The notes: a model not told the origin generated them from the sequence alone. A stretch of 64,000 nucleotides of DNA from Thermodesulfobacteriota bacterium (GCA_964291405.2 OZ219926.1:4128001-4192000); one strand, 5' to 3'; shown: positions 12,120 to 40,309, counted from the stretch's first letter. Program-made: numbers and translations.

Positions 12120-12716
12120 CTAGGGGTGCTCCGGGAATCGGACCCGATACACCCGCGACAGATGGATGAAATACCCCTCTCCCTGTTTCAACGCGGCCAG
12201 ATTTTCGGCCGCGACCTTTCTGCCGACGGTCTGACTGATCGCCTCAGCCTCAGTTCCTTCTCTGCGCAAGAGCAGCGTTGTTTCGTACCGCCCAAAAACG
12301 AGGCGGGATGGGTGTGGAAGGAATTCGACTACCACCATTCCGGTGCGTAAGAAGAAAGTCAGTGTGTGCTCCCAGTCGGCCGTCTCTTGGGCACCATCAA
12401 CGATGAGAAGGGGGGGCAGGGAAGGCGTCCTACCCAGACCGGTCTGCAGCGTCTGAAGCACCTGCTGAGCGATATCGTCCGAAATCGTCCCCTCTGTCGG
12501 TAGGGGAATATAGGCAGCGTCTTCACGCAGCAGGAGACGAAAGGGCATTTCGAGTTGCTGACGACCGTGGGCGTCCAGACACACCACCACGCCGTGTTGA
12601 CTCGCTTGACGCAGGGCGAGGCTCAGGCATAACTCGGTCCGGTCGCGCGGCTGCCCCCCCAGCACGGCTAGACGGCCGCTGAGGTCGGGCAGCGGAAAGA
12701 GACGCTCCTGGGCCAT
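12120..12716 (-). CDS. Hypothetical protein, degenerate P-loop NTPase-like
   Basis: Likely start MAQERLF at 12716; LLIVDGAQ Walker-B-like, L..LKQGEG tail, no intact Walker A. Confidence 0.5.
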   Translation of the reverse strand: MAQERLFPLPDLSGRLAVLGGQPRDRTELCLSLALRQASQHGVVVCLDAHGRQQLEMPFRLLLREDAAYIPLPTEGTISDDIAQQVLQTLQTGLGRTPSLPPLLIVDGAQETADWEHTLTFFLRTGMVVVEFLPHPSRLVFGRYETTLLLRREGTEAEAISQTVGRKVAAENLAALKQGEGYFIHLSRVYRVRFPEHP

Positions 12717-12819
12717 GGAGCGAAGAGCATAGCGTCTCTCCCGCTGCGGGGAAAGCTGACCAACTCCCGGTCGCGCGCTATCTCCTCCCCTACTCAGGCC
12801 GTGCCGAACCGCGTATAAG

Positions 12820-13281
12820 GTGGGCATGGCAATGGCGCGCTCGTACAAAGGCGTTTTCCTGGTGATAGGACTCCTGACCATAGGTGTGGTGGCGGTGACG
12901 ATTACCTATCGCCATCGCCCCCTACCCAAAGAGACAGTGCAGAGTGTCCTGCAAGCCCGCGGGATGCCTGCGGCAAAACGGGGAATGCGACTTTCCCAAG
13001 CCGGTCGCCAGCTTTTACCACCCGACGAGCGGGCCGAAATGGACGCGATCTATGCCGAGGCCCTCCGGTCGTTACCCGAGCAGGAGCGACTGAAACTGGA
13101 GGAGCTGAGAAAGCATGGCGCCCAGCCCAGCGGACGGGAGGTGACGGAGATGGGCCGGTTGGTCCAAAAGGCGCTTCGGGCGTTGCCACCGGAAAAAAAT
13201 CAACGCCTGTTTGCTTTGGTCGAAAAGGCGGTTGCCCTCCAGCTTGCCAAACAACAACAAGCCGCTCCCCAGCCGAAGTAA
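12820..13281 (+). CDS. Hypothetical membrane-anchored helical protein
   Basis: N-terminal TM segment, helical repeats, co-oriented with the next two genes. Confidence 0.6.
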   Translation: MGMAMARSYKGVFLVIGLLTIGVVAVTITYRHRPLPKETVQSVLQARGMPAAKRGMRLSQAGRQLLPPDERAEMDAIYAEALRSLPEQERLKLEELRKHGAQPSGREVTEMGRLVQKALRALPPEKNQRLFALVEKAVALQLAKQQQAAPQPK

Positions 13282-13774: not shown

Positions 13775-14496
13775 AGCCTCTCGTCAACCCAAAAGATGGT
13801 AGTCTGCTCGTCCGCATCCCCGCGGGCGAATATTGCATGGGAAGCGAGAGCGGGACGCCGCCCGAACGTCCGGCCCACCGGGTCTCGCTGGGGAGTTTTT
13901 ATATTGCCCAACACCCGGTGACGAATGCCCAGTACCGGCAGTTTGTCATCGACACTGGCCATCGTGCACCCTATCTCGATGATGCCCGGGTGGAACGTGA
14001 GAATTGGGACCAGGAGCGCCACGCTCCGCCGGCGGGGCGAGAAGCCCATCCGGTGGTCTTGGTCAGCTGGCATGATGCCCAGGCCTACTGCGCCTGGGCC
14101 GAGGGCCGGCTGCCAACCGAGGCCGAATGGGAAAGCGCGGCCCGTGGCGGGTTAGAAGACAAGCCCTATCCGTGGGGAGATGGGATCAGTCGGGAGTTGG
14201 CAAATTATGATAATCGGGCCGGGACCACCCCGGTCGGGAGCTATCCGTCCAATCCCTATGGTCTGTATGACATGGCCGGTAACGTCTGGGAGTGGGTGGC
14301 CGACTGGTACGACCCGCAGTACTATACAGTCTCCCCGACCGAGGACCCGCAGGGCTCGGCGACCGGAACGGTTAAGGTGTTGCGCGGAGGAGCCTGGCTG
14401 CTCTTCCCCGAGTTTTGCCGGGTTGCCTACCGCTTCCGCAACAACCCCAATTTTCGCTTCAATCTGATTGGCTTTCGTCTGGCGAAATCGGCCTGA
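13771..14496 (+). CDS. FGE-sulfatase (SUMF1/EgtB/PvdO) domain protein
   Basis: F/YxMG, VTNAQY, PVV.VSW.DA.AYC.W, RLPTEAEWE.AARG, NPYGLYDMAGNVWEW, RGG, GFR. Confidence 0.93.
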   Translation: MKPLVNPKDGSLLVRIPAGEYCMGSESGTPPERPAHRVSLGSFYIAQHPVTNAQYRQFVIDTGHRAPYLDDARVERENWDQERHAPPAGREAHPVVLVSWHDAQAYCAWAEGRLPTEAEWESAARGGLEDKPYPWGDGISRELANYDNRAGTTPVGSYPSNPYGLYDMAGNVWEWVADWYDPQYYTVSPTEDPQGSATGTVKVLRGGAWLLFPEFCRVAYRFRNNPNFRFNLIGFRLAKSA

Positions 14497-15952
14497 GCAG
14501 ACCCTCTTGATACAACTGGGCCAGGACCTGACGGACCTGGGCAGGCGGGCTCTGCCGCCCGTCGGGATGCCGCTGATAGGCGGCCAGGATATCCACAACG
14601 GCACGCTGCGTCTGCACGCAGCGCAGCAGGGTCGGGACATTGACTCCGGACAGAAAGCGCAGGCCGCGTGGGTAACGTGGAGTCACAACCGCGGGCCGGA
14701 GCTCAACATACGAGCCTTCGATAACAGGCCGCTCCTGGATACGCAGGTCAGGCGTTACCATTACGTGTGAAACCGGCTGGGAATCAAATGGAGAAAAGGC
14801 CGTGGACGGCTGCTGCGGAGCGGCGGGACCCGCGTCGGGCTCAAGGCGCAGGCAACGGTGCTGCCAAAAGGGACGGTCCGGCCAGCGACCCTCTTCCGCG
14901 TAATAGCGGGCCGATTGTTGATAGTGGCTGCGATAGGTGTCTCGCTGACCGGCTTCGTACAGCTCGGCAGCCTGGGACTGCATGACGGGCCGCTGGAGTA
15001 TGGTGTTGACAACCACGGCGCCGGTAATGGCGGATGCCATGGCTTTCCGGACTCCCTCCGAGGACAAGGGATCAATGAACAGGCCGGCGTCACCGACGAG
15101 GAGGGTGCGGCCGGCGACAAACTGCCGCGCGGTATACAGGCTGGCATCAAAAACCTGAGGTGGGTGGGGAAGGTGCGCGTCAGCCAGAAAACCCGAGACA
15201 TAGGCCGCCTTGCGGAGCTCCTCGATATAAAAGCGCTGTAGTCCGACCCGCTTTATGGCGTGGCTGTGTCGCCAGTCAAGCAGCAGCGTGACATTCCGCT
15301 CGCCCGTGTGCAGCGGGACTGACCAGACCATGCCGTCCGCATAGGCTTCAAGCAGGGTGTTGGCGAAGTCTACGCCGGGTGGATTCCCCGCGTTTTGCCA
15401 ATAGCCCGTCAGGGCCAGGGTCTGGAAGACACTGTCCCGCTGGCGCAGGTTGTGGCGGGCGTATATGCCCGCGTGGCCGGTCGCATCAACACAGAATTCC
15501 GCCCGAATGCGCTCTCTCGAACCATAGCGGACGGTCACGCCGTGTTCCCCGTCAGGCCGGACGTCTCGCACCGGTTGTCCTTCCACAACCCGGACACCGG
15601 CCTGGCGAGCCTGATTGAGCAGAATCAGGTCAAAGTCGGCGCGCACAGACTGAAACCCGCGCCGGTGGTGATCCGAGCTGTAATACGCGGTACGCGGTCG
15701 AGGCGAGCCCCAACACACGCTGTGGCCAGACATCCGCAGAAAGCCGGCCTGTTCCACCTGCGTCCGGACACCCAGAAAGTCGAGCAGGGGGAGGATACTC
15801 GGGGTCAGGGACTCTCCAATCTGGTGCCGTGGAAAACGGCGCTTCTCAATAAGCACGACCCGATAGCCGAAGCCCGCGAGTTGGTGGGCGATAGTCGCTC
15901 CGGCCGGACCGCCGCCAGCAACTACGATGTCTGCTGCGGAAGGGAGTGTCAC
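14459..15952 (-). CDS. qhpG: FAD-dependent monooxygenase, QhpG-like (Trp hydroxylation for CTQ)
   Basis: GGGPAG, FPR..IGESL, DATG, GDA..F.DPLSS.G halogenase-like fold; adjacent to qhp genes. Confidence 0.8.
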   Translation of the reverse strand: MTLPSAADIVVAGGGPAGATIAHQLAGFGYRVVLIEKRRFPRHQIGESLTPSILPLLDFLGVRTQVEQAGFLRMSGHSVCWGSPRPRTAYYSSDHHRRGFQSVRADFDLILLNQARQAGVRVVEGQPVRDVRPDGEHGVTVRYGSRERIRAEFCVDATGHAGIYARHNLRQRDSVFQTLALTGYWQNAGNPPGVDFANTLLEAYADGMVWSVPLHTGERNVTLLLDWRHSHAIKRVGLQRFYIEELRKAAYVSGFLADAHLPHPPQVFDASLYTARQFVAGRTLLVGDAGLFIDPLSSEGVRKAMASAITGAVVVNTILQRPVMQSQAAELYEAGQRDTYRSHYQQSARYYAEEGRWPDRPFWQHRCLRLEPDAGPAAPQQPSTAFSPFDSQPVSHVMVTPDLRIQERPVIEGSYVELRPAVVTPRYPRGLRFLSGVNVPTLLRCVQTQRAVVDILAAYQRHPDGRQSPPAQVRQVLAQLYQEGLLRPISPDESQSD

Positions 15953-16099
15953 GTCAGACTGCCAATGGCGAATCGTAGAATTGTTGCTTGGAGCTTATGC
16001 CGTCGGATCAGGAAGAGCAACACGAGGGCCGTGTCTATTTCGTCTCCGGCCAAGCTGCTGTACAGTCGGCCTGGTATTCGTCCTCTCAGGACTGTCGCT

Positions 16100-17839
16100 A
16101 TGCATATTGCCTCGGTACTCTCCCGTTTCTATCGGCTGTCGCCCTTTGTGAAGCCGTATGTGCGCAGAATCGGTTTCATCTTCCTCCTGTCCTCCTTTGG
16201 CACCGTTCTCGGTCTGCTCTGGCCGTTGTTTACCAAAATCCTGATTGACGATGTTTTGCTCGCACGCAACATATCGCTCTTGGTGACGCTGTGCGGGATC
16301 ATGCTGGGTGTCACGCTGCTCGGTTATGGGGTAGGGGCGATCAATCGCTATCTCTACACCCAGGTTACGGCACGCGTTTTATTTGCGCTCAGACAGCACC
16401 TCTTCGCCCATTTGCAGAAGCTCTCTCTCCGCTTCCATACCCAGGTCAAAGTGGGCGATCTCCTGTCGCGCCTGAATACCGATATTGCCGAGATTCAGTC
16501 CGTCCTCACCGACGCGGCCTTCACCTTTGTCACCAATATCTTCGTCCTGCTGGCAACCGTGGGATTTCTCATCTGGCTCAACTGGCGGCTCTTTCTGGTC
16601 AGCCTGCTCGTTATCCCGCTCCAAATATATGGGGTACGCAAAATACAGCCGTATATGGTCGAGGAAACCCGCAAGGTGCGCGAGTTGAACGCCTCGATTT
16701 CCGCCTTTCTGGTTGAGTCCCTGTCGGCCATCAAATTCGTCAAGCAGTTTGGTGCGGAGCCTACCCAATTGGGGCGTTTGGGCCGACTGGGTCAACGCTT
16801 TGTTGCGCTGGTGACACGGTTTGAAATGATCGGCTATATCGGCAGCACGACCGCGACGGCTACGACGTTTCTGGGCAGTACCCTGGTCACCCTCTACGGG
16901 GGCTATCTGGTGATTGAGGGCCAGATGAGTATTGGCAGTCTGGTTGCCTTCGCCGCCTACCAGTCGCGCGCCTTCAGTCCTATCCAGGTTCTAATGGACC
17001 TGTACCTACGCATCGAGCGGGCTGGCGTGTCCGTGGACCGGGTGTTCGAGTTTCTGGATATCGGACAGGAATATACCGAGCCGTCCGGCGGGACCTTACG
17101 CCCCGAAGGGCTACACGGGGAGATCGAATTTCGTGACGTATCGTTCGGCTATCAGACCAACGCTCCGGCCAGTCAGCCGGTGTTGCGTCAGGTGAGTTTT
17201 CTGGTGGGGGCCGGGCAGCGCCTGACCGTTCTGGGACCGAGCGGAACGGGCAAGTCCACGCTCGTCGACCTCCTGATACGGCTGTATGAGCCCCAGGCCG
17301 GGACCATCTGCCTGGACGGTCATGACGTGAGGGAGTTGGACCTGGTATGGCTACGTCAACATGTGGTCGTCATCGGCCACGAGCCCTTTCTATTTCACGC
17401 CTCGATTCTGGAAAACGTGTCGTACGCCAGCCCGGAGGCAAGCCGCGAAGAGATCGTTGCGGCGGTCACAGCAGTTGGCCTGCACGAGTATGTGACCACG
17501 TTGCCTGACGGTTACGAGACCACTGTGGGCGAACGGGGCACGCGCCTGTCGGCCGGACAGCGTCAGCGCATTGCCCTGGCCCGCGCCCTGCTCAAAAAGC
17601 CCCGGATTCTGGTGCTGGACGAAGCCCTGTCCGGCCTTGATGTCGAAAGCGAAGCCGACCTCCGTCAGACCTTGTCTGCGGTGATGCGAGGCTGCACGAC
17701 ACTCGTGGTGACCCATCGGTTGAGCTCTCTCCACGCCGACGATGCGGTTGTCGTGCTTAAGCACGGCGCGGTCGAGTGGCAGGGAACTTACCGGGAACTG
17801 ATCCGAGCGCCTGACATCTTACAGGCCGCCACCGGGTAG
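16100..17839 (+). CDS. qhpF: ABC exporter (TMD+NBD), QhpF-like
   Basis: TM domain, GPSGTGKST, LSAGQRQR, LDEA; likely start ATG 16100; qhp context. Confidence 0.82.
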   Translation: MHIASVLSRFYRLSPFVKPYVRRIGFIFLLSSFGTVLGLLWPLFTKILIDDVLLARNISLLVTLCGIMLGVTLLGYGVGAINRYLYTQVTARVLFALRQHLFAHLQKLSLRFHTQVKVGDLLSRLNTDIAEIQSVLTDAAFTFVTNIFVLLATVGFLIWLNWRLFLVSLLVIPLQIYGVRKIQPYMVEETRKVRELNASISAFLVESLSAIKFVKQFGAEPTQLGRLGRLGQRFVALVTRFEMIGYIGSTTATATTFLGSTLVTLYGGYLVIEGQMSIGSLVAFAAYQSRAFSPIQVLMDLYLRIERAGVSVDRVFEFLDIGQEYTEPSGGTLRPEGLHGEIEFRDVSFGYQTNAPASQPVLRQVSFLVGAGQRLTVLGPSGTGKSTLVDLLIRLYEPQAGTICLDGHDVRELDLVWLRQHVVVIGHEPFLFHASILENVSYASPEASREEIVAAVTAVGLHEYVTTLPDGYETTVGERGTRLSAGQRQRIALARALLKKPRILVLDEALSGLDVESEADLRQTLSAVMRGCTTLVVTHRLSSLHADDAVVVLKHGAVEWQGTYRELIRAPDILQAATG

Positions 17840-17861: not shown

Positions 17862-18575
17862 TCACGTGTGACTCGTCTGTTGGAGATAGGTCCGGGCGGT
17901 TTCTGGCGTCAAGTCTGGGTGGCGCTCGGCCCGGAGGGCGAGCGTAGCGGCAATATGCGCTGAGGCAAAACTATGGCCGTAAAAGTTCTGCGTCTGGGCC
18001 GGGCCGGGCAGGGGGCGTGGATAGGGATGGGCACGAAAGGGAACCGGGCTGTCTGTGAGGGCGCGGTATTCGTCCCACGCGCAGCTTTCATCTGCGGCCA
18101 CGCCTATGACGCCGGGTAAGGTTGCGGGTAACACATCCGAGCGGTCCGGGGGAGAAGACGCAATCAGGATGAGCTTTGCTTCTTGTGCTTGGGCGACCAG
18201 GGCCGAGAGCGGCTGGCGATGCTGCGCGTTAATCATTCCCAGACTCAGACTGATGATTTTCATGCGCTGTCCAATGGCCCAGCCCAAGGCCGCTTCCAGA
18301 ACCGGAAATGAAGTGGCCAGATGGTCCGTAAAAATCTTAACCGCGTAGAGCTCGGCTTGGGGAGCTTTGGCACGGACCACCCCGGCGAGGGCGGTCCCGT
18401 GCCCGATGTGATCGGGGTACTCCGGGCTGGTCTGGACCTCGTTCTCCTCGTTCAAGAAAAAATGGATGCCGCCCGCGACGCTGCCAACATGCGAATGCTG
18501 GGCATTCACCCCGCTGTCGATAAGCGCGACTTTAACCCCCGCCCCGGTCGGCGCCCCGTCCCTGTCCTGACCCAT
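17862..18575 (-). CDS. qhpE: Subtilisin-like leader peptidase QhpE
   Basis: Small S8 protease with IDSG, HGT, GHSFAS triad; divergent from qhpA. Confidence 0.88.
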   Translation of the reverse strand: MGQDRDGAPTGAGVKVALIDSGVNAQHSHVGSVAGGIHFFLNEENEVQTSPEYPDHIGHGTALAGVVRAKAPQAELYAVKIFTDHLATSFPVLEAALGWAIGQRMKIISLSLGMINAQHRQPLSALVAQAQEAKLILIASSPPDRSDVLPATLPGVIGVAADESCAWDEYRALTDSPVPFRAHPYPRPLPGPAQTQNFYGHSFASAHIAATLALRAERHPDLTPETARTYLQQTSHT

Positions 18576-18660
18576 GCCTTGTCCCTTGTAAGCAAAGCAT
18601 ACCAAATATGCCCGTTTATGCGAGGGAGAAAATGGTATCTACAACTCCGGTTCTTTCCAT

Positions 18661-18688
18661 TTGACTCTCACTCAGAGAGGTATAGAAT
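18661..18688 (+). promoter_or_regulatory. Putative sigma70 promoter of qhpA1 operon
   Basis: TTGACT-16 nt-TAGAAT; overlapping CTCTC-N5-GAGAG inverted repeat. Confidence 0.45.
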
Positions 18689-18744
18689 CCGGCTACTGCG
18701 TCAGAGATGGAGACCAGTGTTTCAGCCTGGAGGAGAGGACAGGT

Positions 18745-20424
18745 ATGACGACCGGAAAAACATGGAAACGTATGAGAAGGCACATCTGGGTATTGCTCGT
18801 GTTGGCGGGGCTCGTTGGCACGACCCATGATGTCAAGGCTGCGGAACACCAGGCGACGCCTTCCGCCCGAGAAACGTTGGTGATCCGCTGTATACGTTGC
18901 CACGCGCCGCAAGGAGAGAATGGCAAGCTTGACGCGATTGAAGCCCAGCGCAAGTCACCCGAAGGCTGGAGCATGACGCTCAGCCGTATGGTCCGAACGC
19001 ACGGGGTCGAATTGCAGGACGGAGATGCCCGCATTCTGGTCAAATATCTGAGCGATCACTACGGGCTGGCTCCCAAAGAAGTCGAGCCCTATCGCTTTAT
19101 TCTCGAACAGCGCAATACCCGCACCACGCAGGACGTGCCCAAGCCCCTCCAGGCTGGCTGTATCCAGTGCCATACCTACGCACGGATCGCCTTGCAGCGC
19201 CGGACGCAGGACTCGTGGGAGCGGCTGCCGGACGCCAAGGTCGCACTCATGGCGAATATCGGCAGTGAGACCGCCTCCGCCGGCCAGTTGAAGGATTATT
19301 GGTTTGATGATGCAAAGAAAGCTGCGGTGCCCCATCTGATCGAGCACCAGCCGTTTGAGACCGAAGCCTGGACGGCCTGGCAGGCGGCCAAAAAGCCGAG
19401 CTATGCCGGTACTTGGCTGGTGGTTGGCCATGACCCCGGCCGCGGCGGGGATTACACCGGGCAACTCACGCTGACCGCCGGGGAGGACGATCAATACACT
19501 GGCACATTTTCCTACACGTTTGCCGACGGCTCTCGGATGGAAGGCTCCACGACCGGGACGATATACACCGGCTTCCAGTGGCGCGGCGTTGCCCAAGCCA
19601 AGGAAAGTGGACCGGCCGGCCGGGAGATGCGACAGCGCGAGATTTTCTTTGCCTCCGAAGACGGGAACACCGTTTCCGGCCGGCGCTTGCTGACCAACCT
19701 CGGCGACCTGGGCATGAATGAAACCTGGTATCGCCGCCGGGGCGGGGCGCAGCTGCTGACGGTCAGTCCAGCCATGATCCAAACCGGCTCTCCCCAGACA
19801 GTAAATATTTTCGGGATGGGCTTCTCCGGGGACACGCTGTCGGCGGATAAAATTTCTTTTGGCGAGGGCGTGGGGGTGTTGTCCCTGCGGCTCGATGGCA
19901 ACCAGACGATTGTGGCGGAAGTCTTTGCCAAGGCTGGCGTGGCAGAAGGGCTGCGCACGGTCTCCATTCAAGGGGTGGCGGGAACGGGGCAGGTCGCGGT
20001 CTACGAGGCGGTCGATTACATCCGCATCACGCCGGAACGGGGCTTCGCCCGGCCCGGCGGCATTCGGACGCCAAAAATTTTTCAGCAGTACGAAGTGGTA
20101 GGCTATGCGAACGGCCCGGATAACGCCAAGGGCACGGACGACGATGTCAAGCTGGGACGGATCGGCCCGGTCAAGTGGAATCTGGAAGAGTACGTGAAAC
20201 GTCCGAACGACGACGATATTCAGTATGTCGGTGCGGTCGACCAAACCGGCCTGTTTCACCCCAACGAGGATGGGCCGAATCCCAAACGCCACCTGATGGA
20301 AGGTAATGTGGGCGATGTCTGGGTGGAAGCCTGGTATACGCCCGAGGGCGAAAAACGACCCATGGGCGCGCGCGCCCACTTATTAGTGATGCCGGCCAAG
20401 TTTGTCTTCCCACCGATTGAATAG
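18745..20424 (+). CDS. qhpA: QHNDH alpha subunit (diheme c), copy 1
   Basis: CIRCH and CIQCH, RK.PEGW.MT..RM...HG, ARIALQRRT, NGPD...GT.DD, GPNP.R, C-terminal PPIE. Confidence 0.95.
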   Translation: MTTGKTWKRMRRHIWVLLVLAGLVGTTHDVKAAEHQATPSARETLVIRCIRCHAPQGENGKLDAIEAQRKSPEGWSMTLSRMVRTHGVELQDGDARILVKYLSDHYGLAPKEVEPYRFILEQRNTRTTQDVPKPLQAGCIQCHTYARIALQRRTQDSWERLPDAKVALMANIGSETASAGQLKDYWFDDAKKAAVPHLIEHQPFETEAWTAWQAAKKPSYAGTWLVVGHDPGRGGDYTGQLTLTAGEDDQYTGTFSYTFADGSRMEGSTTGTIYTGFQWRGVAQAKESGPAGREMRQREIFFASEDGNTVSGRRLLTNLGDLGMNETWYRRRGGAQLLTVSPAMIQTGSPQTVNIFGMGFSGDTLSADKISFGEGVGVLSLRLDGNQTIVAEVFAKAGVAEGLRTVSIQGVAGTGQVAVYEAVDYIRITPERGFARPGGIRTPKIFQQYEVVGYANGPDNAKGTDDDVKLGRIGPVKWNLEEYVKRPNDDDIQYVGAVDQTGLFHPNEDGPNPKRHLMEGNVGDVWVEAWYTPEGEKRPMGARAHLLVMPAKFVFPPIE

Positions 20425-20462: not shown

Positions 20463-21926
20463 ATGGAATTACACTTCCGTGCGGAAAACGCCCACGCTAT
20501 AACGGAGGGCAACCAGAACATTCTGGTTGCGGCCAAAAGCATGTCCATGTTTGTCATGGACCCGGTCTCCCAGGCCGTCCTCGATTATGTGCAGGCGCAT
20601 CCGCACGCGATCCAGGAAGAGCTGACCGCCAGTCTGGCCGAGCACTTCCCGCTGGCCGAAATAACCGAGACGATCCAGGAATTTATCACCTTAGAAATCC
20701 TGCAAACCCAGGAGCGTTCCGCTACTCCCGCTCCCCTGCCGGTGCTCGACGTCGAGCATTTCCCGGTGAGTTCGCTCGTTGTCAACGTGGCCAATAAGTG
20801 TAACCTCCACTGCACCTACTGCTACGAACCCGAGGGGGCGAAATACGGCCCGTCGCCGGTCCAGATGGACTGGGAGACCGCGCGCGACAGCGTCGATTTT
20901 CTGTTCAAGAAGTCCGGCGCCAGCAAAGAGGTCAATTTGATTTTCTTTGGCGGAGAGGCGCTGCTGAACTTCAAGCTCATGCGTCGGACCGTCGCCTATG
21001 CGGAAGAAAAGGCCCAGGCCGAAGACAAGGTCGTCGACTTTTCGCTCACGACCAACGGAACGCTCTTAACCGACGAGGTAATCGACTTTTTCCAGGCCCA
21101 TCGCTTTGGCGTGACCATCAGCATTGATGGTCCCAAAGACCTGCACGACAAGCGGCGCGTTTTTCTTACAAAGCGGGGCGAACAGAAAGGCTCGTACGAT
21201 CTCTTACGGCCCCGCCTGGAACGCCTGCTGGAACGCTATACGGTCAGGCCGGTGGTCGCCCGGGTCACGGTCACAAAAGACGCCATCGATATCGTGCGCA
21301 CCTACGAGCATCTCACGCAGCTCGGTTTTTTTGAGGTTGGCTTTTCGCCGGTCACCGCCCAGGCCGAGACCGACTATGGCTTGGAGCCGGCCGATTTGCG
21401 TGAATTGCTGCGGCAGTTTCGCGAGCTTGGCGCGGTGTATATCGAGCGGGCGCTCAACCAGCAGTACACCGGGTTTTCAAATTTGAGCACCATGCTGACC
21501 GACATTCACCTGGGCACAAACAAGCTCTTTCCGTGCGGGGCCGGCCTGGGCCTGTTGGACGTGGACGGCAACGGTGATGTGTATTTATGTCATCGGTTTC
21601 CGGGCACCGAGGAACAAAAATACGGCAATGTCAAAGACGGCATTCAGTACGACCGGCTGAACGCCTTTATCAACGGTGCCCATCTGGGCAATAAGCCGGT
21701 ATGTCAGACCTGTTGGATTCGGGGCCTGTGCGGCGGCGGGTGCTACCACGAAGCCATGACCGAGTTTGGGGACACGGCACTGCCGAATCTGCACTACTGC
21801 GATTTCTTGCGGGAATGGACGGAATACGGCATTGGCGTGTATATGCAGTTGCAAGAACAAACCCCTGGGTTTGTCGAGCAGTATGTGTTACGCGGGCGTG
21901 GAGACGCCCCAAAAGAATTAACCTAA
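20463..21926 (+). CDS. qhpD: Radical SAM/SPASM thioether-forming maturase
   Basis: N-terminal RRE-like region, CNLHCTYC, PCGAG...LCHRF, C..C.....CGGGCYHEA; between qhpA and qhpC. Confidence 0.95.
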   Translation: MELHFRAENAHAITEGNQNILVAAKSMSMFVMDPVSQAVLDYVQAHPHAIQEELTASLAEHFPLAEITETIQEFITLEILQTQERSATPAPLPVLDVEHFPVSSLVVNVANKCNLHCTYCYEPEGAKYGPSPVQMDWETARDSVDFLFKKSGASKEVNLIFFGGEALLNFKLMRRTVAYAEEKAQAEDKVVDFSLTTNGTLLTDEVIDFFQAHRFGVTISIDGPKDLHDKRRVFLTKRGEQKGSYDLLRPRLERLLERYTVRPVVARVTVTKDAIDIVRTYEHLTQLGFFEVGFSPVTAQAETDYGLEPADLRELLRQFRELGAVYIERALNQQYTGFSNLSTMLTDIHLGTNKLFPCGAGLGLLDVDGNGDVYLCHRFPGTEEQKYGNVKDGIQYDRLNAFINGAHLGNKPVCQTCWIRGLCGGGCYHEAMTEFGDTALPNLHYCDFLREWTEYGIGVYMQLQEQTPGFVEQYVLRGRGDAPKELT

Positions 21927-21939
21927 GGGAGAGTGTGGG

Positions 21940-22281
21940 ATGAAACACCTCAAGGCAGCGAACTCCAAGGCCCGGGCCGTCACCGCCAGTGTGGCACAAG
22001 CGACTTCCACCGAGGAAGACGTTATCGGGATGGCCCAACCCATCGGTTGTACGACGATCTTCAATCCGGGCTGGGAGGCGAATCCGTGGGGTGGAGCCAG
22101 CAGCATGTGCGCCCCCATGGAGGCCGACCTGCTGAGCTGTGCGAATCTGTGCTGGTGGCCGGCTCAGGTGCCGGACAGCCTCCAGAGTGCTCCCGAGTGG
22201 GCGAAAGGCTGCTCGGGCATGAATCAGGAAGACTGGCGCAACCTCGACGTTGTTTTCCCCAAGACCGATACGTCCGGATAA
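21940..22281 (+). CDS. qhpC: QHNDH gamma subunit precursor, copy 1
   Basis: MKHLK..N.KA leader; core GCTT.F.PGWE...C.PMEADL..C...CWWPAQVPD. Confidence 0.95.
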   Translation: MKHLKAANSKARAVTASVAQATSTEEDVIGMAQPIGCTTIFNPGWEANPWGGASSMCAPMEADLLSCANLCWWPAQVPDSLQSAPEWAKGCSGMNQEDWRNLDVVFPKTDTSG

Positions 22282-22306
22282 ACGCAGCGGGCGGAAGGAG
22301 CCGGTG

Positions 22307-23398
22307 GTGCACGGGAAAAACAGGCCGCTGCTGGGGGGTGTGCTCTTTGTGTTCGGACTGCTGGTCCTGCCGCAGACGACCTGGGCCAAGTGGTACCTCC
22401 TGGCCAGCACGCATCCCAACAACCTGGTCGTCGTCGATACCGAAACCGACACGGTGGTCAAAGACATTGCCCTTGAGGGTCGTGGGCCGGCGCTCTATAT
22501 CGCGCCAAACCCGGCCCAGCCGCAGTTCGCCTATGTCGTAAATAATCTGGCCAAAAGCGTTGCCATGGTCGATCTGGACGAGGGCAAGCAGGTCAAAAGC
22601 TTTGACTTGTCGAGCGACAACGAGCTCGTACGCACCATGGCGATCGATGTGAACATGCAGGGCACCCGGCTGTTCGTGCACGAAATGCCGGTTCAGCAAG
22701 ACATGGGCCGCTATACGGCCCGGGACAACCGGATACGGGTCATTGACCTGGAGACCAATGAGACGCTGACCACGTTTACCGCTCCCCGCCAGGTGATGGG
22801 ATTAGCCTCTTCAAAAGACGGCAAACGCCTCTATCTGTTCAGCGTCGGTCAGGACATTTTTGTGCACAGCACGGAAGACGGCAGCCTACTCGATGTCATT
22901 CCGCTGGCAAACCGCAACATCAGCGGCATTGCGAGAACCGACGGCCTGCCGCTCGGCGGGACCTATCAGGAAAGCGGCCACCTCGTCTCTTTCGGGACCT
23001 TCACCACCGATTCCATCACCAATCAGGTGACGCTCGGTATCGGCTCTCTCGACCTGACTCAGGAAGACCCGGAACTGAAGGTCGTTGAATTGCAGCCTTT
23101 TGTCGAAGGCGATTATGTGCTCACGGGTGCGCTGTCGCCGCATACGAACAAGGCCTATTTCGCATACAACAGTTTGTGGAAGGTTGACCCGAAAACCCGT
23201 CACATTGAGAAAAAGGTGTCGCTGTCCAACACCTATTTTGCGCCGCTCGTTCACCCCGAAGGCAAGAAGGTCTACTGCGGCAGCAACTGGCACGATGTCG
23301 CGGTCTACGACGCGGAATCACTCGACCTGATCACCAAAGTCCCCCTGGGCCATTCGCAGACCGGAGGGGTCAGTGTCTTGCGGTTTGTGAATCGTTAG
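22307..23398 (+). CDS. qhpB: QHNDH beta subunit (beta-propeller), copy 1
   Basis: Signal peptide, HPNNL.VVD, PRQV propeller repeats, follows qhpC; GTG start after AGGAG. Confidence 0.88.
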   Translation: MHGKNRPLLGGVLFVFGLLVLPQTTWAKWYLLASTHPNNLVVVDTETDTVVKDIALEGRGPALYIAPNPAQPQFAYVVNNLAKSVAMVDLDEGKQVKSFDLSSDNELVRTMAIDVNMQGTRLFVHEMPVQQDMGRYTARDNRIRVIDLETNETLTTFTAPRQVMGLASSKDGKRLYLFSVGQDIFVHSTEDGSLLDVIPLANRNISGIARTDGLPLGGTYQESGHLVSFGTFTTDSITNQVTLGIGSLDLTQEDPELKVVELQPFVEGDYVLTGALSPHTNKAYFAYNSLWKVDPKTRHIEKKVSLSNTYFAPLVHPEGKKVYCGSNWHDVAVYDAESLDLITKVPLGHSQTGGVSVLRFVNR

Positions 23399-23406: not shown

Positions 23407-24039
23407 ATGTCTCGGACGATACTTACCCGCCGAAATGTTCTCCAGGGGATCGGCACCGCCGCCCTTCTCGGCCAGGCGTACAGTCTGGCGCATGCCGTTG
23501 AAAAAGGCGACGCCGCCAGCTTCGCCTCGGTTGTGAAACGCCGGCGCATGATCCGTAAGTACGAGGACAGGCCGGTCCCTGAAGAAGAGATCCGAGCGCT
23601 GCTGCGCTACGCCGTGCGTGCGCCCAGCGCGGGGAATCTACAGCCGTGGGAGTTTATTCTGGTGCGTGACACCGAGGTCCGAGACCAACTCGCCAAGGCG
23701 GCGATGAATCAGAACTCGGTTGCCACCGCGCCGATTATTGTTGCCACCTGTGCCGATATCCAACGCATGGGTGAGAAATACGGCACGCGCGGCGCTTTTT
23801 ATAGTTTAGTGGATACCGCGTTTGCCTCATTACTCATTTTGTTAGGCGCAACCGAGCGCGGGCTCGGGGCCTGCTTTGTTGGCGCGTACAATCCGGAAGA
23901 AGTCGCCAAGATATTGCAACTGCCCAGCCACGTCCGTCCGGTCGGACTCATCACCCTCGGTTATCCTGCGGAAAAGCCACGCAAACCGACGAACAAGAAA
24001 ATCCCGCTCGAGAACCTGATCCACGAGAATACGTGGTAG
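23407..24039 (+). CDS. Nitroreductase family flavoprotein with Tat signal
   Basis: TRRNVL..AHA signal; RR.IRKY, APSAGNLQPWEF, GLGACFVG, LGYPAE. Confidence 0.9.
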   Translation: MSRTILTRRNVLQGIGTAALLGQAYSLAHAVEKGDAASFASVVKRRRMIRKYEDRPVPEEEIRALLRYAVRAPSAGNLQPWEFILVRDTEVRDQLAKAAMNQNSVATAPIIVATCADIQRMGEKYGTRGAFYSLVDTAFASLLILLGATERGLGACFVGAYNPEEVAKILQLPSHVRPVGLITLGYPAEKPRKPTNKKIPLENLIHENTW

Positions 24040-24175: not shown

Positions 24176-25840
24176 ATGGAGGGCATGATCATGAACGCTA
24201 TATGGGGGAGACGTGGTCGACTAAGCGGATACCTCTTGAGCCTCTTCTTGGGCTTCACGCTCTGTTTTGCAGGACAACCCGCGTGGAGCCAGGAGATGAC
24301 CGGGCCGGCTTTGCTGGAGACGCGTTGCTCGGGTTGTCATCCTCCTCATGAAGAAGGGGGCAAGCTTGACGCGATCGAACATCAGCGCAAGCCCCCCGAA
24401 GCCTGGGAGATGACTATCTATCGCATGTTGCGCACCCACGGAGCGAATCTGGAAGCGGGTGAGGCTCGCATCCTGATCAAATACCTGAGCGATCAGTATG
24501 GCCTGGCACCGGCGGAAGTCAAACCCTTTCGGTATGCCTTAGAGAAACGGAACAATACGATAGAAAAACATGTTCCCAAGGAAGTGAAGGGCACCTGTGT
24601 GGCCTGTCACTCCTATGCGCGGATCGCCCTGCAGCGCCGTACGCCCGAATCGTGGGGGCGTCTGCCGGACCTGACCGCGGCCTTGCTGCCGAATATCGAA
24701 AACCAGGTCGCCTCAACGGGGCTGCTGGGCGACTTCTGGTACACGCTGGTGCGGAAGGATACCGTCCCCTATCTGGCGCAGACCTATCCGTTTGACTCAG
24801 CCTCTTGGAGGCAGTGGCAGGCCAAGCCCAAACCGGACTACGCCGGGGTCTGGAATGTGGTCGGTCACGACCCTGGAAAGGGCGGGGCCTACACCGGCCG
24901 GATGACGCTGACCGCGTCGGGGAACGATAACTACGAGGGCCAGCTCGCGTATGACTTTGCCGATGGGTCGCGTATGACCGGGAAAAACACTGTGACGATG
25001 TATACCGGCTTCCAGTGGCGGGGTGTGGCCGAGGTCGAGGGCGGCAAGACCCACAAAGAAATCTTTTTTGCCAATGAGGACGGAACGGTCGTAAGCGGGA
25101 GGCGGTTGCTGACGCTTGTTGGCGATCTGGGCATGGAAGAGACCTTATACCGGAATACGGGCCAGGCAAAATTTTTGGCCGTCAGCCCGGCCGCGCTCAA
25201 AGTCGGCGAGCGCTCCACGCTCAGGCTGTTTGGCATGAACCTCCCCGAGTCCCTGACCGCGGCTTCGATCTCTCTGGGAACGGGTGTGACGGTTCAGTCT
25301 CTGCGGAGGGTTGATGCTGATACGGTCATGGCCGACGTGGTAGTGGGGAAAAAGGCAAAAGTAGGCGCTCGACAGGCTCGGATTCGGGGAGTTGATGGGG
25401 AACAGTCGCTGGCCGTCTACGATACGGTTGACTATATCCGTCTCTCTCCGGAACAGGCGTTTTCTCGGCCTGGTGGCATTCGCACCCCCAAAATTTTTCA
25501 GCAGTTTGAGGCGGTCGGATATACAAATGGTCCGGACGGACGAAAGGGAACTGACGACGATATGAAGCTGGGACGTGTCGGTCCGGTGACGTGGAAGCTG
25601 AACGAGTACGTGCGGCGCGTCAATGATGACGATGTGCGCTTTGTCGGTGCCATGGATGCCCACGGTCTTTTTACGCCGGCCGAGGACGGTCCAAATCCAA
25701 AACGGCACTTGCAGCAGGGCAATGTCGGCGATGTCTGGGTGGAGGCCTGGTATCGGCCAAATGGCGCCCGTCGGCCTATGGGAGCGCGCGCCCACCTGCT
25801 GGTCATGCCGGCAAAGTATAATTTTCAACCGATTGAATAG
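24176..25840 (+). CDS. qhpA: QHNDH alpha subunit (diheme c), copy 2 (start may be 24185/24191)
   Basis: CSGCH and CVACH; colinear paralog of copy 1. Confidence 0.95.
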   Translation: MEGMIMNAIWGRRGRLSGYLLSLFLGFTLCFAGQPAWSQEMTGPALLETRCSGCHPPHEEGGKLDAIEHQRKPPEAWEMTIYRMLRTHGANLEAGEARILIKYLSDQYGLAPAEVKPFRYALEKRNNTIEKHVPKEVKGTCVACHSYARIALQRRTPESWGRLPDLTAALLPNIENQVASTGLLGDFWYTLVRKDTVPYLAQTYPFDSASWRQWQAKPKPDYAGVWNVVGHDPGKGGAYTGRMTLTASGNDNYEGQLAYDFADGSRMTGKNTVTMYTGFQWRGVAEVEGGKTHKEIFFANEDGTVVSGRRLLTLVGDLGMEETLYRNTGQAKFLAVSPAALKVGERSTLRLFGMNLPESLTAASISLGTGVTVQSLRRVDADTVMADVVVGKKAKVGARQARIRGVDGEQSLAVYDTVDYIRLSPEQAFSRPGGIRTPKIFQQFEAVGYTNGPDGRKGTDDDMKLGRVGPVTWKLNEYVRRVNDDDVRFVGAMDAHGLFTPAEDGPNPKRHLQQGNVGDVWVEAWYRPNGARRPMGARAHLLVMPAKYNFQPIE

Positions 25841-25930
25841 GGATTGAACAAACCCTGGCGTTAGAGCGAGCAGTATGCTACGAGGCTGGGAGGAGACGCG
25901 AGAGTTTCCGGTCAGCGCAAGGAGGGCGTG

Positions 25931-26263
25931 ATGAAACACCTCAAGGCCGCGAACCATAAAGCGCATAGAGTCGAGACCGCCCCCGCGGCCAAACGGCAGG
26001 TGCCGGAAGACGTTCTGGGCATGGCCCAGCCGATGGGCTGCACCACGATTTTTAACCCCGGCTGGGAGGCGAACCCCTGGGGCGGCACCGCGGGCATGTG
26101 CGCGCCAATGGAGGCTGACCTGCTCGGCTGTGCCAATGTGTGTTGGTGGCCGGCTCAGGTGCCCGACAGCCTGCAAAACTACCCGGAGTGGGCCAGTGCC
26201 TGTTCGGGTGTCAACGCCGAGGACTGGCGTAGCTTGGAGCTGGTCTTCCCCGAGAAGAAATAG
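25931..26263 (+). CDS. qhpC: QHNDH gamma subunit precursor, copy 2
   Basis: MKHLKAANHKA leader; GCTTIFNPGWE...CAPMEADLLGCANVCWWPAQVPD. Confidence 0.95.
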   Translation: MKHLKAANHKAHRVETAPAAKRQVPEDVLGMAQPMGCTTIFNPGWEANPWGGTAGMCAPMEADLLGCANVCWWPAQVPDSLQNYPEWASACSGVNAEDWRSLELVFPEKK

Positions 26264-26315: not shown

Positions 26316-27140
26316 ATGAACCCTGGGCAAAGACAGCGTCTGTGGAGCCGAGGCGTTTTCTTTGCGGGACTGTTCCTGCTCCTGCACGGGTTCCCTCCGC
26401 TCGTTGAGGCGGACTGGTATATCGCCTCGACAACCATCCCACCGAACTCCTCCGCTTCTGCTTGGCGTCCTCCTCAGGTTGTGACGCGTGTTGCCCGGAA
26501 CCGACTGACCTACGAGACCCGAGCCTGGACGCAAATTATCGACCTCAACACGCAGCAGCTCTCGATTATCAGCCATCTGGGACAGGTGTACTGGCAGGGA
26601 CCAATCGAGGCCTACGCCACGGTTATGGCAGCGCGCACCCAGGAACGGCGGGCGCAGGCGGAACGCTTGATGAACCAGCTCCCTCATGGGCCACAACAAT
26701 TCGTGACAAGACGAGCCGGTCCGTTTGATAGCCTGAGCCCCAGGCTGACGATTACGATCACCCCGATGTCGGAGACCGAGTCGGTCGCCGGGTATACGGC
26801 TCACAAATATCGTATCCAGCGGAACGGCATCGCGTATGAAGAAACCTGGTTGGCTGAGAAGATCAAGCTGGGGACGGATGTTGATATGTCCCGGCTGAAC
26901 GCGTTTATCGACAAGCTGCAAACTTCTCGAACGACGCCGCCAGGAGCTGTGCTCGCCGAATTAACCGAGCTGATCAATATAGGCTACCCAGTCAGGACCG
27001 TGAACCTGGTCACCCAGGTGGTCAAGGAAGTGGTCCAGGCCGAGCAGCGGCCGATTCGGGCTGAGGTATTTATGGTGCCGGATGGCTATACCAAAAAGGC
27101 GCTGGTCGAGATCATGTTTCCAACAAGGAGGCGTTTATGA
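26316..27140 (+). CDS. Exported DUF4412-like protein
   Basis: Signal peptide; IIDL....L.I..H, ETE.VAGY...KY, E.W.A, GYP, F.VP.GY.K pattern. Confidence 0.65.
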   Translation: MNPGQRQRLWSRGVFFAGLFLLLHGFPPLVEADWYIASTTIPPNSSASAWRPPQVVTRVARNRLTYETRAWTQIIDLNTQQLSIISHLGQVYWQGPIEAYATVMAARTQERRAQAERLMNQLPHGPQQFVTRRAGPFDSLSPRLTITITPMSETESVAGYTAHKYRIQRNGIAYEETWLAEKIKLGTDVDMSRLNAFIDKLQTSRTTPPGAVLAELTELINIGYPVRTVNLVTQVVKEVVQAEQRPIRAEVFMVPDGYTKKALVEIMFPTRRRL

Positions 27141-28240
27141 AGGGCAAGAGTCTGTTATGGGCAGTGTCAACGCTGAGTGCGCTGGTCCTCGTTTGTAGTC
27201 TACCCGGCCTGGTGTGGGCCAAATGGTATATCCTGACCGGCGCCCATCCGAACTCCGTGTATGTGATTGATGCGGAAACCGATACGGTCGTGAAGACCAT
27301 CCCGCTTGAGGGAAAAGGGCCCATCTTTACCGTGGCGCCGAATCCAGCCCGACCCCAGTTCGCCTATGCGGTCACCAACCTCAGCCAAAGCGTGGCCCTG
27401 GTTGACCTGGACGAGGGAAAAGAGGTCCTGCGCTTTAATCTCTCCAACGACAACGAACTGGTCAGGACCATGGCCATTGATGTCAACCCGCAGGGCAATC
27501 GCCTCTACATCCATGAAATGCCGTTGAAGAAAGACCTGGGCAAATACGAGATACTGGAGACCCGCATCCGAGTCATCGATCTGGACACCAATACGGTCGC
27601 CAATGTGTTCCCCGCCCCCCGTCAGGTGATGGCGCTGGCGTCGTCCCAAGACGGGAAAAAGCTGTACGCCTTTAGCGTGGGCAGAGATATCTCGGTGCTG
27701 AATCCAGAGACGGGTCAGGTCGAGGACGTTATCCCCATGGCGGACTGGAACGTGACCGGCGCCGGCAAGCTGGAGGGACTGCCCTTGTGGAACCCCTATC
27801 AGGAAAACGACTACCTGGCCTCGTTTGCCGTGTATATGACGGACACGATTACCCAGCATGCCACCGTTGGAGTAGCCACCCTTGACCTCAAGCAGGCCAA
27901 TCCGGAGCTGCAAGTGGTTGAGCTTCAGCCCTATGAGGCCGAATGGTGGACGGCCCACGGGGCGGTATCGGCCAAAACCCAGAAGGCCTATCTCGGCTGG
28001 GACAAGCTGTGGAAGATGGATATCGCGACGCGCCAGATGGAAGAAGTGAGGCAGTTCGACACCAACAGTGTCTTCGGCTCTTTTCTCCATCCCGATGGGA
28101 CCAAAGTCTACTGCGGTGGAAACTGGAGTGCGTTGTCCGTGTTTGACGCCGACACGCTCAAGCCTCTCAAGAAGATTGATCTGGGGCACTCCCAAGCCGG
28201 TGCGGGTATCCGGTTTGTCAACCGCGAGAATGGGTTCTAA
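27137..28240 (+). CDS. qhpB: QHNDH beta subunit, copy 2
   Basis: Clear paralog of 22307-23398 (WAKWY.L..HPN, SNDNELVRTMAIDVN, LGHSQ). Confidence 0.88.
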   Translation: MKGKSLLWAVSTLSALVLVCSLPGLVWAKWYILTGAHPNSVYVIDAETDTVVKTIPLEGKGPIFTVAPNPARPQFAYAVTNLSQSVALVDLDEGKEVLRFNLSNDNELVRTMAIDVNPQGNRLYIHEMPLKKDLGKYEILETRIRVIDLDTNTVANVFPAPRQVMALASSQDGKKLYAFSVGRDISVLNPETGQVEDVIPMADWNVTGAGKLEGLPLWNPYQENDYLASFAVYMTDTITQHATVGVATLDLKQANPELQVVELQPYEAEWWTAHGAVSAKTQKAYLGWDKLWKMDIATRQMEEVRQFDTNSVFGSFLHPDGTKVYCGGNWSALSVFDADTLKPLKKIDLGHSQAGAGIRFVNRENGF

Positions 28241-37212: not shown

Positions 37213-38271
37213 ATGGAATTCGGCCTGCAATTTTTTCCTGACGTCAGTCCGGCGCAGCGCTCTGGAGAAGAGTATTGGGCCGATGCGCTCTACCTCAGCC
37301 AATTAGGTGAAGAGCTGGGTTTCACATCTATTCGGACAGTCGAACATTATTTCCACCCGTACGGAGGGTACAGTCCCAACCCCCTGTTGTTCCTGGCCGC
37401 GGTGGCTATGAGGACGGCGAAAGCCCGGCTGATTACTGGCGCGGTCTTACCGGCGTTTAATCATCCGCTCAAACTGGCAGGTGAAATCGGAATGCTGGAT
37501 GCGATCTCACATGGCCGCTTAGAAGTCGGATTTGCCCGGGCGTTTCTCCCACATGAATTTGAGCGTTTTGGGGTCACGCCAGACGAAAGCAATGCGCGGT
37601 TTGAAGAAGGGCTTGAACTTGTTCGGCGTCTGCTTGAGGAAGAACATGTGTCTGCTGAGGGACGATTTCACCAATTCAGAGATGTGACCTCTTTACCCCG
37701 TCCGACCCAAACTCCACGGCCTCCGTTTTGGCTTGCTGCATTGGCGACACCCTCGAGCTTTGAGCGTGCCGGACGGCTGGGCTACGATGTGATGGCTATT
37801 CCCCTGGCCGGTGGCCAAATGGCCGACCTGATCGGCCGTTATCGTGAAGCACGCCGACAGGCCGGCCATACCGGGCCAGGCCGTGTTATGCTCGCTTTTC
37901 ATATGTTGTGTACCGCCAGTGAGGAGCAAGCGATCAACATAGCTCGCGGCCCTTTGAATGCGTATCTCAAATCTCTGGTGGACGGCGCGTCGGGCTGGTT
38001 GGCAGGTCAATCATCTGCGGACTATCCCAACTATGACAAGATTATTGCCGTGCTGTCCAAGGAAACCTTTGAAACGCAACGTGAGAAGGGCGCAGCCTGG
38101 ATAGGCACGCCTGACGCTATCAGCCGGCAGATCAAAGACTATTATTCCAGTGTGGGTGGTTTTGATATTGCTTCAATGCAGGTGAATTTCAATGTATTGG
38201 AGCGGGCAAAGGCCGAAGCGTCCATGCGTTTATTTGCCGCCCAGGTCTTGCCGCAATTCACGCACCGGTAA
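37213..38271 (+). CDS. LLM-class flavin-dependent oxidoreductase
   Basis: VEHYF..YGGYSPNP, HPLKLA, GRLEVG, PRPTQ.PRPP. Confidence 0.92.
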   Translation: MEFGLQFFPDVSPAQRSGEEYWADALYLSQLGEELGFTSIRTVEHYFHPYGGYSPNPLLFLAAVAMRTAKARLITGAVLPAFNHPLKLAGEIGMLDAISHGRLEVGFARAFLPHEFERFGVTPDESNARFEEGLELVRRLLEEEHVSAEGRFHQFRDVTSLPRPTQTPRPPFWLAALATPSSFERAGRLGYDVMAIPLAGGQMADLIGRYREARRQAGHTGPGRVMLAFHMLCTASEEQAINIARGPLNAYLKSLVDGASGWLAGQSSADYPNYDKIIAVLSKETFETQREKGAAWIGTPDAISRQIKDYYSSVGGFDIASMQVNFNVLERAKAEASMRLFAAQVLPQFTHR

Positions 38272-39625: not shown

Positions 39626-40309
39626 CTACACAATCCGGTGCTCTTCGGTAATCAGAGTGAATGCTGATGCCGGGTCAACGAACTTTGCACCATCCGGCTG
39701 AGCGTGATCTTTGTACTCCGCCGACGCCAGGGCAAAATTCAGGTCGCCCAGGGTCTCAAACCACAGCTCGGCCACCCCATCGTACTGCGGCTCACCCCGC
39801 TCATACGCCGAAGGCAGAGCGTGGCACTGAACGTAGCGCTGCACACCAGGCATGGCGAGCGCCAGTGGGCCGTGCACGTCCTTCCAGTAGCGGAAGAACT
39901 CCTCCCGGTCCCAGTCAGGCTTGCGTTTGATAAAGGACAGCCGTTTGACCCGCGGCTCGGGACTGTTGGATTGCTCGCCTCTGCGCAGCACATGGTCTGC
40001 GGTGACGAGCCGCGCTACGTTTTGGACATCTGCAAAATTCGGTTCATCCGCGTACGCGCCTTCGCGATATTCCTTGCTCAGAAAGGCGGCGGTGATGGCG
40101 GCTTCGCTATCCATCCAGATTTCCACCACACCGTCATAGGCTTGGCTCCGGCTCACCACGGTCGAGCTGTGGTTTTGCACATAGCCGCGCAGACCGGGCA
40201 TACGCTTGGCGAGTGGGGCGTGCACTTCGCGCCAGTGGCGTGAGAAGTCCGCCAAGCTGAGACCATCTTTCCGCTTAAAGGCAATGAGTAAGTGGGCCAT
40301 TCTATCCAT
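39626..40309 (-). CDS. Tandem EthD-domain protein
   Basis: Two EthD repeats; paralog of 5360-6031. Confidence 0.9.
   Translation of the reverse strand: MDRMAHLLIAFKRKDGLSLADFSRHWREVHAPLAKRMPGLRGYVQNHSSTVVSRSQAYDGVVEIWMDSEAAITAAFLSKEYREGAYADEPNFADVQNVARLVTADHVLRRGEQSNSPEPRVKRLSFIKRKPDWDREEFFRYWKDVHGPLALAMPGVQRYVQCHALPSAYERGEPQYDGVAELWFETLGDLNFALASAEYKDHAQPDGAKFVDPASAFTLITEEHRIV

Follow-up and report, generated by a model that had tools for sequence, protein, structure and literature searches.

A second quinohemoprotein amine dehydrogenase (QHNDH), encoded in a 64,000-nucleotide stretch of DNA from a Thermodesulfobacteriota bacterium (GCA_964291405.2 OZ219926.1:4128001-4192000; the window in what follows), has an alpha subunit, QhpA2, in which Thr167 occupies the position where nearly all family members carry the putative distal His of heme II. 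QHNDH is the textbook cysteine tryptophylquinone (CTQ) enzyme, in which the two hemes are regarded as nothing more than a six-coordinate wire for electrons. The reading favoured here, to which an even chance is given, is that QhpA2, QhpC2 and QhpB2 would form, in an uncultured bacterium of the Binatia, an intact, working second amine dehydrogenase isoenzyme, the heme II of which lacks a protein sixth ligand. The finding concerns a lineage whose heme II has Lys at the distal position in place of His, as in the paralog QhpA1 of the same window, plus a conserved sister type without a ligand-capable residue at that position. Its main interest is the natural series of His, Lys and none at one heme in one scaffold. 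If the heme of the Thr type is open, the series would illustrate how axial ligation sets potential and reactivity, and would suggest that sponge-associated bacteria have amine-oxidising enzymes whose hemes bind oxygen, peroxide or amines; if instead another ligand makes the heme six-coordinate, the finding would be a modest note on ligand plasticity.

The gene qhpA2 lies on the plus strand at 24176..25840 (positions are those of the whole window) and encodes a protein of 554 aa, numbered below from the translation of the open reading frame (ORF), in which about the first 38 residues form a Sec-type signal peptide. The Pfam domains PF09098, PF14930, PF09099 and PF09100 occur in this order, and correspond to a di-heme domain followed by three beta-barrel domains. 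The protein scores 450.1 bits on the NCBIfam equivalog TIGR03908 (cut-off 274.35), and is matched end to end by phmmer with the solved alpha chains 1jmx_A (E 3e-80) and 1jju_A (E 1.2e-79). An AlphaFold2 model, obtained with an alignment of 86 homologs (pLDDT 92.2, pTM 0.88), was placed by Foldseek on the same chains (1jmx_A, TMt 0.94, root mean square deviation 2.2 A; 1jju_A, TMt 0.93). Searches of Pfam, NCBIfam and Foldseek gave no match of QhpA2 to the CCP/MauG or cytochrome c' families, and only QHNDH was found. Both heme attachment motifs, CSGCH of heme I (residues 51-55, 24326..24340) and CVACH of heme II (residues 141-145, 24596..24610), are invariant in the 86-sequence alignment. The four alpha domains, the CxxCH motifs and the heme I Met are thereby shared with the enzymes of Pseudomonas putida (1JMX/1JMZ) and Paracoccus denitrificans (1JJU/1PBY), from which the window proteins differ in having Thr (QhpA2) or Lys (QhpA1) in place of His126. 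To judge from its sequence, QhpA2 is a bona fide QhpA family member; the distal His, typical of most members, is outside the curated family definition, so that QhpA2 may be regarded as a variant.

Thr167 (codon ACC, 24674..24676) sits 22 residues downstream of the His of the second CxxCH motif, and the same spacing is found in 1jmx_A and 1jju_A, in an alignment free of gaps. In the phmmer pairing, Thr167 corresponds to His126 and Arg162 to His121 of both solved chains. The peptide and the Thr codon (24674-24676) quoted in an earlier interpretation of this DNA, referred to here as the sequence-only reading, are exact in the translation of 24176-25840. Its remark that no His or Met follows within about 50 residues is exceeded by the data, since residues 146-230 are free of His, Met and Cys, the next His being residue 231 and the next Met residue 243.

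The column was surveyed across the family by using phmmer on 152 sequences, namely QhpA1, QhpA2 and the best 150 of 761 matches in a library of representatives at 50% identity. Of these rows, 106/152 were aligned to the heme domain, and 98 had an intact heme II motif and a filled column 167. The residue found there is His in 90 rows, Lys in 5, Leu in 2 and Thr in 1; two additional rows, with an imperfect heme II motif, also have His. Because column 167 is nearly always His, while column 162, that of His121 in the solved chains, is variable in the survey rows (Leu 29, Lys 27, Arg 18, His 3, others), His126 rather than His121 was taken to mark the ligand column. Column 84 contains Met in 89, His in 3 and Thr in 1 of the 93 aligned rows. 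Among 46 full-length His-type representatives, which were selected for His in column 167 and are therefore 46/46 His by construction, Met84 (44/46) is the sole other column outside the CxxCH motifs where a His, Met, Cys, Lys or Tyr exceeds 90%. Two hemes and two conserved distal candidates suggest His/Met ligation for heme I and His/His ligation for heme II; in QhpA2, Met84 (24425..24427) would thus be, by conservation, the distal ligand of heme I. A search of the full-text literature found no paper naming the axial ligands of QHNDH, and the assignment was made from conservation, on which basis column 167 is supported as the conserved distal-ligand position of heme II in the family.

Loss of the distal His, the frequency of which in QhpA homologs had been raised as a question by the sequence-only reading, is rare by this count (8/98 rows), not common, yet recurrent. 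Leu is shared by the protein P0124 and by P0276, its one close relative (55% identity); in P0130 Leu in the distal column is followed three residues later by Met; P0311 and P0039 have Met in the distal column, and P0017, which falls inside the Thr group, has Leu. All these proteins are further candidates for altered heme II ligation.

To describe the relatives of the two window proteins, 122 sequences were aligned, consisting of QhpA1, QhpA2 and 120 homologs (54-98% identity) which, where the organism is named, come from uncultured Binatia, Binatota or 'Deltaproteobacteria' metagenome-assembled genomes (MAGs). Their distal column contains Lys in 106 proteins, Thr in 14, Leu in 1 and Met in 1. 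Intact Thr-type alpha genes are present at 21 loci (the window, 15 species genomes and 5 metagenome contigs), and Thr occupies column 167 in 21/21 of them, over 62-98% identity, with the codons ACC (18), ACA (2) and ACT (1). Given His in 90/98 survey rows and Thr at every one of these loci, the pattern cannot be put down to chance. In 13 Thr-type proteins, 63-89% identical to QhpA2, 236/515 columns of the mature protein (46%) are invariant, to be compared with 29/40 for residues 141-180 and 13/18 for residues 160-177 in the same set. These proportions indicate that the distal segment of the Thr-type proteins is under stronger constraint than the protein as a whole. Residues were called Thr-type-specific when present in at least 85% of Thr-type and at most 15% of Lys-type proteins; the fixed ones are Glu130, Thr140, Leu166, Thr167, Ala168, Leu171, Gln177 and Val225. 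Five of them (Leu166, Thr167, Ala168, Leu171 and Gln177) lie within the distal segment, residues 160-177 (24653..24706, plus strand), and Glu130 (24563..24565) is found in 14/14 Thr-type versus 14/106 Lys-type proteins. The changes fixed near Thr167 are either towards smaller residues (Lys to Thr, Leu/Val to Ala, Phe/Met to Leu) or towards newly polar ones (Gln177, Glu130); no Thr-type-specific His, Met, Lys, Cys or Tyr occurs among the fixed residues of the alpha subunits.

The catalytic parts of the second enzyme are canonical: QhpC2 retains the Cys and Trp that form CTQ, together with the Cys residues of the cross-links, and QhpA2 retains the two CxxCH motifs as well as the Met of heme I. 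Heme II, in contrast, has lost its distal His to Thr, which cannot coordinate heme iron. In the favoured reading, its sixth position would then be open or occupied by water (His/- or His/H2O), and the heme probably high-spin; it may still pass electrons on from CTQ to heme I, at an altered potential, and the vacated site would be accessible to small molecules. An open heme II is the simplest reading because Thr is non-ligating and no replacement ligand is fixed in the alpha or gamma subunits of the Thr type; the data show the identity of the genes, the substitution and its conservation, and the lack of a substitute ligand at the sequence level, whereas we infer how the heme is coordinated, which of the two hemes faces CTQ, and all consequences for function.

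Several points weigh against this reading. The bond of His126 to the heme iron in 1JJU and 1JMX is an assumption, backed by conservation. Heme II is presumably the heme adjoining CTQ, the pairing of the candidate ligands with the two hemes following sequence order. Possible stand-in ligands exist in QhpA2, namely Tyr108, Tyr147, Tyr222 and Met79, which are conserved in at least 115/122 Lys- and Thr-type proteins, and Lys194, which is present in QhpA2 itself; a ligand could also be supplied in trans by QhpB2, by the protein of a DUF4412-family gene located inside the Thr-type module (His87, Met267), or by QhpC2 (including Cys92). In addition, the Thr-type module is not indispensable. A Lys-type enzyme is also kept in 15/15 species genomes with the Thr type, and the module is degraded in a complete chromosome (L037:17137-19864), where an internal deletion leaves residues 3-108 and 430-554 of the Thr-type alpha gene, alongside a gamma gene with a frameshift and a truncated beta gene; in another genome (L041:15207-17119) the alpha and gamma genes are absent and the DUF4412 gene and qhpB2 remain.

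The stand-in ligands lead to an alternative which is possible, although rather unlikely, namely that heme II of QhpA2 has kept a six-coordinate, low-spin iron through a ligand that the column comparison does not flag, the enzyme being an ordinary dehydrogenase with a retuned potential. The ligand could be Tyr108, Tyr147, Met79 or Lys194 in cis, or, in trans, Cys92 or Tyr85 of QhpC2, a residue of QhpB2 or one of the DUF4412 protein. It is consistent with such a role that Tyr108, Tyr147 and Tyr222, conserved along with Met79 in the Lys and Thr types, are far less conserved in His-type proteins, that QhpC carries across the Binatia group an extra Cys absent from the solved gamma chains, and that a gene for a protein with an invariant His87 lies inside the module. 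However, the candidates are not specific to the Thr type, and hence give no account of why Lys is retained in the Lys-type enzymes. The Thr-type loci L056 and L058 lack the DUF4412 gene, homologs of which also occur beside the Lys-type clusters L072 and L074. Moreover, the residues fixed beside Thr167 shrink, instead of becoming ligand-capable.

The degraded module of L037, the partial loss in L041 and the constant presence of a Lys-type paralog could alternatively be explained if QhpA2 were a decaying duplicate, which lost heme II ligation without selection for electron transfer. We consider this highly improbable, since the 554-aa frame is intact and keeps all motifs, Thr is maintained at 21/21 loci with synonymous codon changes over 62-98% identity, the distal segment is conserved above average, and some Thr-type clusters (L057, L061) have their own qhpD.

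A further possibility, which includes the oxidase proposed by the sequence-only reading, goes beyond the favoured reading and requires the open site that the latter proposes: heme II could be reactive, binding O2, H2O2, NO or amine/ammonia in place of the lost Lys or His. We hold this to be unlikely, and the same low expectation applies to its conceivable outcomes, which are an amine oxidase, an enzyme coupled to peroxidase chemistry, a relay gated by the substrate, or a system that matures itself in the manner of MauG. The peroxidatic heme of bacterial di-heme peroxidases, MauG and cytochromes c' provide known five-coordinate c-type hemes, which are at work in peroxidases and MauG. In all of them a His-ligated c heme lacks a protein sixth ligand; QhpA2 may resemble them in this respect as a di-heme periplasmic protein, and MauG acts on a tryptophylquinone enzyme. 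QhpA2 differs from them in having no sequence or fold relationship to any, and a distal catalytic pocket in it would be putative. The new polar residues fixed in the Thr type, Gln177 and Glu130, which may face the heme, and the stronger constraint on the distal segment compared with the rest of the protein are in line with a reactive heme, and Oozeki et al. (PMC7876137) propose that the last oxidation in the formation of CTQ may be performed by the alpha-subunit hemes. Against it, no homology to peroxidases, MauG or cytochrome c' is seen, Pfam giving the four QHNDH domains only, and coexistence with the Lys type and decay in some genomes fit an accessory isoenzyme equally well. Were it correct, the distal position would exist, within one uncultured group, in three states (His, Lys and none), and the vacated position would be a small-molecule site (for amine, ammonia, O2 or H2O2), a proposal offered with little confidence; no more probable is the corollary that heme II would gate or sense turnover, or would couple amine oxidation directly to oxygen or peroxide.

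The paralogous alpha subunit QhpA1 is encoded at 18661..20424 (plus strand), the true start probably being Met29 or Met38 of the ORF, and the alignment places its Lys193 (AAG, 19237..19239) in the same column as Thr167 of QhpA2. The two are the only qhpA copies in the genome; the window paralogs are 56% (A1/A2), 72% (C1/C2) and 53% (B1/B2) identical. Lys-type codons in the analysed loci are AAG (39) and AAA (18). In a sister clade of about 50% identity, composed of MAGs labelled Binataceae or 'delta proteobacterium', the column holds His after the same LPDL context, which makes the column alignment unambiguous. Lys is a proven ligand of heme 2 of TsdA from Allochromatium vinosum, for which PMC6879331 gives His/Lys ligation and a midpoint potential (Em) of -129 mV; the same paper counts few natural His/Lys c hemes, and calls the Lys ligand labile in them. 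TsdA thus shows that a Lys amine can serve as the distal ligand of a c heme that transfers electrons, as supposed for QhpA1 and the 106 Lys-type homologs. It differs from QhpA in its unrelated fold and enzyme, and in that Met can replace Lys on reduction; neither Lys nor Met is present near the QhpA2 site. As Lys is invariant in the Lys type (106/106 proteins) and is a proven heme ligand in TsdA, heme II of QhpA1 is probably six-coordinate with Lys as the ligand, and a whole Binatia QHNDH lineage would probably have a His/Lys heme II, itself a rare ligation. The literature search found nothing on Lys or Thr distal variants, or on QHNDH in Binatota, subscription papers being outside its coverage.

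These results bear on two statements of the sequence-only reading. It had noted that the paralogs differ at this site, as they do (Lys193 of QhpA1 versus Thr167 of QhpA2, in the distal-ligand column of the family), and that both lack His, which is literally true but treats as alike two proteins that are not, given the Lys invariance and the TsdA precedent. Its proposal of an open heme is partly supported for QhpA2, where the Thr is non-ligating and no replacement is fixed, and does not extend to QhpA1, with its probably six-coordinate heme II.

The order in which the three types arose was evaluated on two trees, both of which root the Lys/Thr radiation among His-type sequences. In the quick tree (82 rows), a Thr group (15 Thr, 1 Leu, 1 Met and 1 Lys; starred support of 98) is nested among Lys lineages. 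In the careful tree (41 rows), by contrast, a Thr grade encloses the main Lys clade (unstarred support values, 86-91), and a small Lys/Met group stands apart. Since the two trees disagree, neither a Lys to Thr nor a Thr to Lys change is claimed; the His present in the outgroups and in the roughly 50%-identical sister clade indicates a His-type ancestry for the Lys and the Thr type alike.

The arrangement of the genes was compared among the loci of the relatives. The order ABC gene, Lys-type A, D, C, B, nitroreductase, Thr-type A, C, DUF4412, B, amidohydrolase is found in 12 genome loci and in L055. The Lys-type copy is in the same locus as the Thr type in 12/15 genomes and on another contig in 3 (L005/L032, L008/L031, L021/L016), and many relatives carry a Lys-type cluster alone. 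In L056 the double arrangement is present without DUF4412; in L057 and L061 the Thr-type alpha gene is followed by its own qhpD, the order in L057 being A, D, C, DUF4412, B; and in L058 the alpha gene is directly followed by the beta gene. These varied arrangements, including Thr-type clusters with their own qhpD, indicate that the Thr type is an old paralogous cluster and not a recent local copy.

Contigs from RNA-labelled libraries (four libraries from three studies, three labelled as sponge and one as marine metagenome) partly cover both modules, including positions 24271-24686. Such metatranscriptome-library contigs are a weak hint of expression, as contigs show presence, not transcription, and uncovered bins are uninformative. 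The segment 24176-26263, or near-identical DNA, is found mainly in public runs labelled sponge metagenome, some of which are metatranscriptomic, which suggests a sponge-associated organism.

In the window, the first set of structural genes is arranged as likely qhpG, likely qhpF, likely qhpE, qhpA1, qhpD, qhpC1, qhpB1 and a nitroreductase-family gene, and the second as qhpA2, qhpC2, the DUF4412 gene and qhpB2, then an amidohydrolase gene. The maturation genes (qhpD and the likely qhpE, qhpF and qhpG) are within 10 kb, and qhpC2 and qhpB2 are encoded alongside qhpA2. As in P. putida and P. denitrificans, the gamma subunits have the CTQ and thioether Cys pattern, the beta subunit is a beta-propeller and qhpD/E/F/G-type genes are nearby; the window differs from these systems in the fifth Cys of its gamma subunits and in the inclusion of DUF4412 and nitroreductase-family genes in the clusters. 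The likely qhpG (14459..15952, minus strand; PF04820, PF01494) would encode a FAD-dependent, Trp-halogenase-like protein, the name following the operon as described in PMC7876137. The likely qhpF (15395..17839, plus strand; PF00664, PF00005) would encode an ABC exporter, its ORF start overlapping qhpG and the real start lying later, and the likely qhpE (17862..18605, minus strand; PF00082) a subtilase. The only radical SAM maturase of the region is encoded by qhpD (20463..21926, plus strand; TIGR03906, 548.7 bits), and presumably serves both gamma subunits. They are followed by qhpC1 (21940..22281, plus strand), encoding a gamma subunit, and by qhpB1 (22250..23398, plus strand), which scores 173 bits on TIGR03907 (cut-off 223) and the real start of which is probably downstream of the first ORF codon. 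The nitroreductase-family gene, for a flavin mononucleotide (FMN) protein, is at 23407-24039; such a gene follows qhpB in nearly all fetched Binatia Lys-type qhp clusters, and is not among the qhpABCDEFGR genes listed in PMC7876137.

The gamma subunit precursor gene qhpC2 (25928..26263, plus strand; NF037958, 135.5 bits) encodes a product which, aligned to 1jju_C and 1jmx_G, retains the four canonical Cys, the CWW tryptophan of the CTQ site and all cross-link residues. Comparison with QhpC1 revealed no extra His, Met, Lys or Cys in QhpC2; Tyr85 and Met35 differ from QhpC1, and are also found with His-type and some Lys-type enzymes. The fifth Cys, Cys92 in QhpC2 (26201-26203) and Cys91 in QhpC1 (22210-22212), is absent from 1jju_C and 1jmx_G, but all fetched relatives of the His, Lys and Thr types have it, apart from the L037 copy with its frameshift. 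A trans ligand from QhpC2 specific to the Thr type was considered and rejected, as QhpC2 has no His, Met, Lys or Cys beyond those of QhpC1 and the extra Cys is common to the His, Lys and Thr types. The beta-propeller subunit gene qhpB2 (27137..28240, plus strand) matches 1jju_B (E 1.3e-35) and scores 181 bits on TIGR03907, below the cut-off of 223. In QhpB1 and QhpB2 a Cys takes the place of the Leu of the solved beta chains; this Cys is frequent in relatives without being invariant (a few have Ala or Val), and a bond between the subunits through the extra Cys residues of QhpC and QhpB may be entertained as a loose idea.

The DUF4412-family gene inside the Thr-type module (26316..27140, plus strand; PF14371, E 7.6e-6) encodes a protein with a signal peptide, predicted to be periplasmic, with a strongly conserved SRTTPPGAVLAELTE stretch and the invariant His87 and Met267. 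The gene is part of 16 close modules, and L057 has a version of 48% identity; homologs of 39-48% identity lie within or next to other qhp clusters of Binatia (L057, L072, L074). Its AlphaFold2 model is poor (pLDDT 45.1, pTM 0.34), no match was obtained against PDB sequences (best E 0.92), and a search of the ESM Atlas returned only DUF4412 or hypothetical clusters. No similarity was found between the protein and the window ORF at 12120-12881.

Elsewhere in the window, four luciferase-like monooxygenase genes (4148-5188, 37213-38271, 50214-51293 and 56198-57316) and two EthD-domain genes (5360-6031 and 39626-40309) are present. Together with acyl-CoA and thiolase genes, they suggest that the window is a broad oxidative catabolic region.

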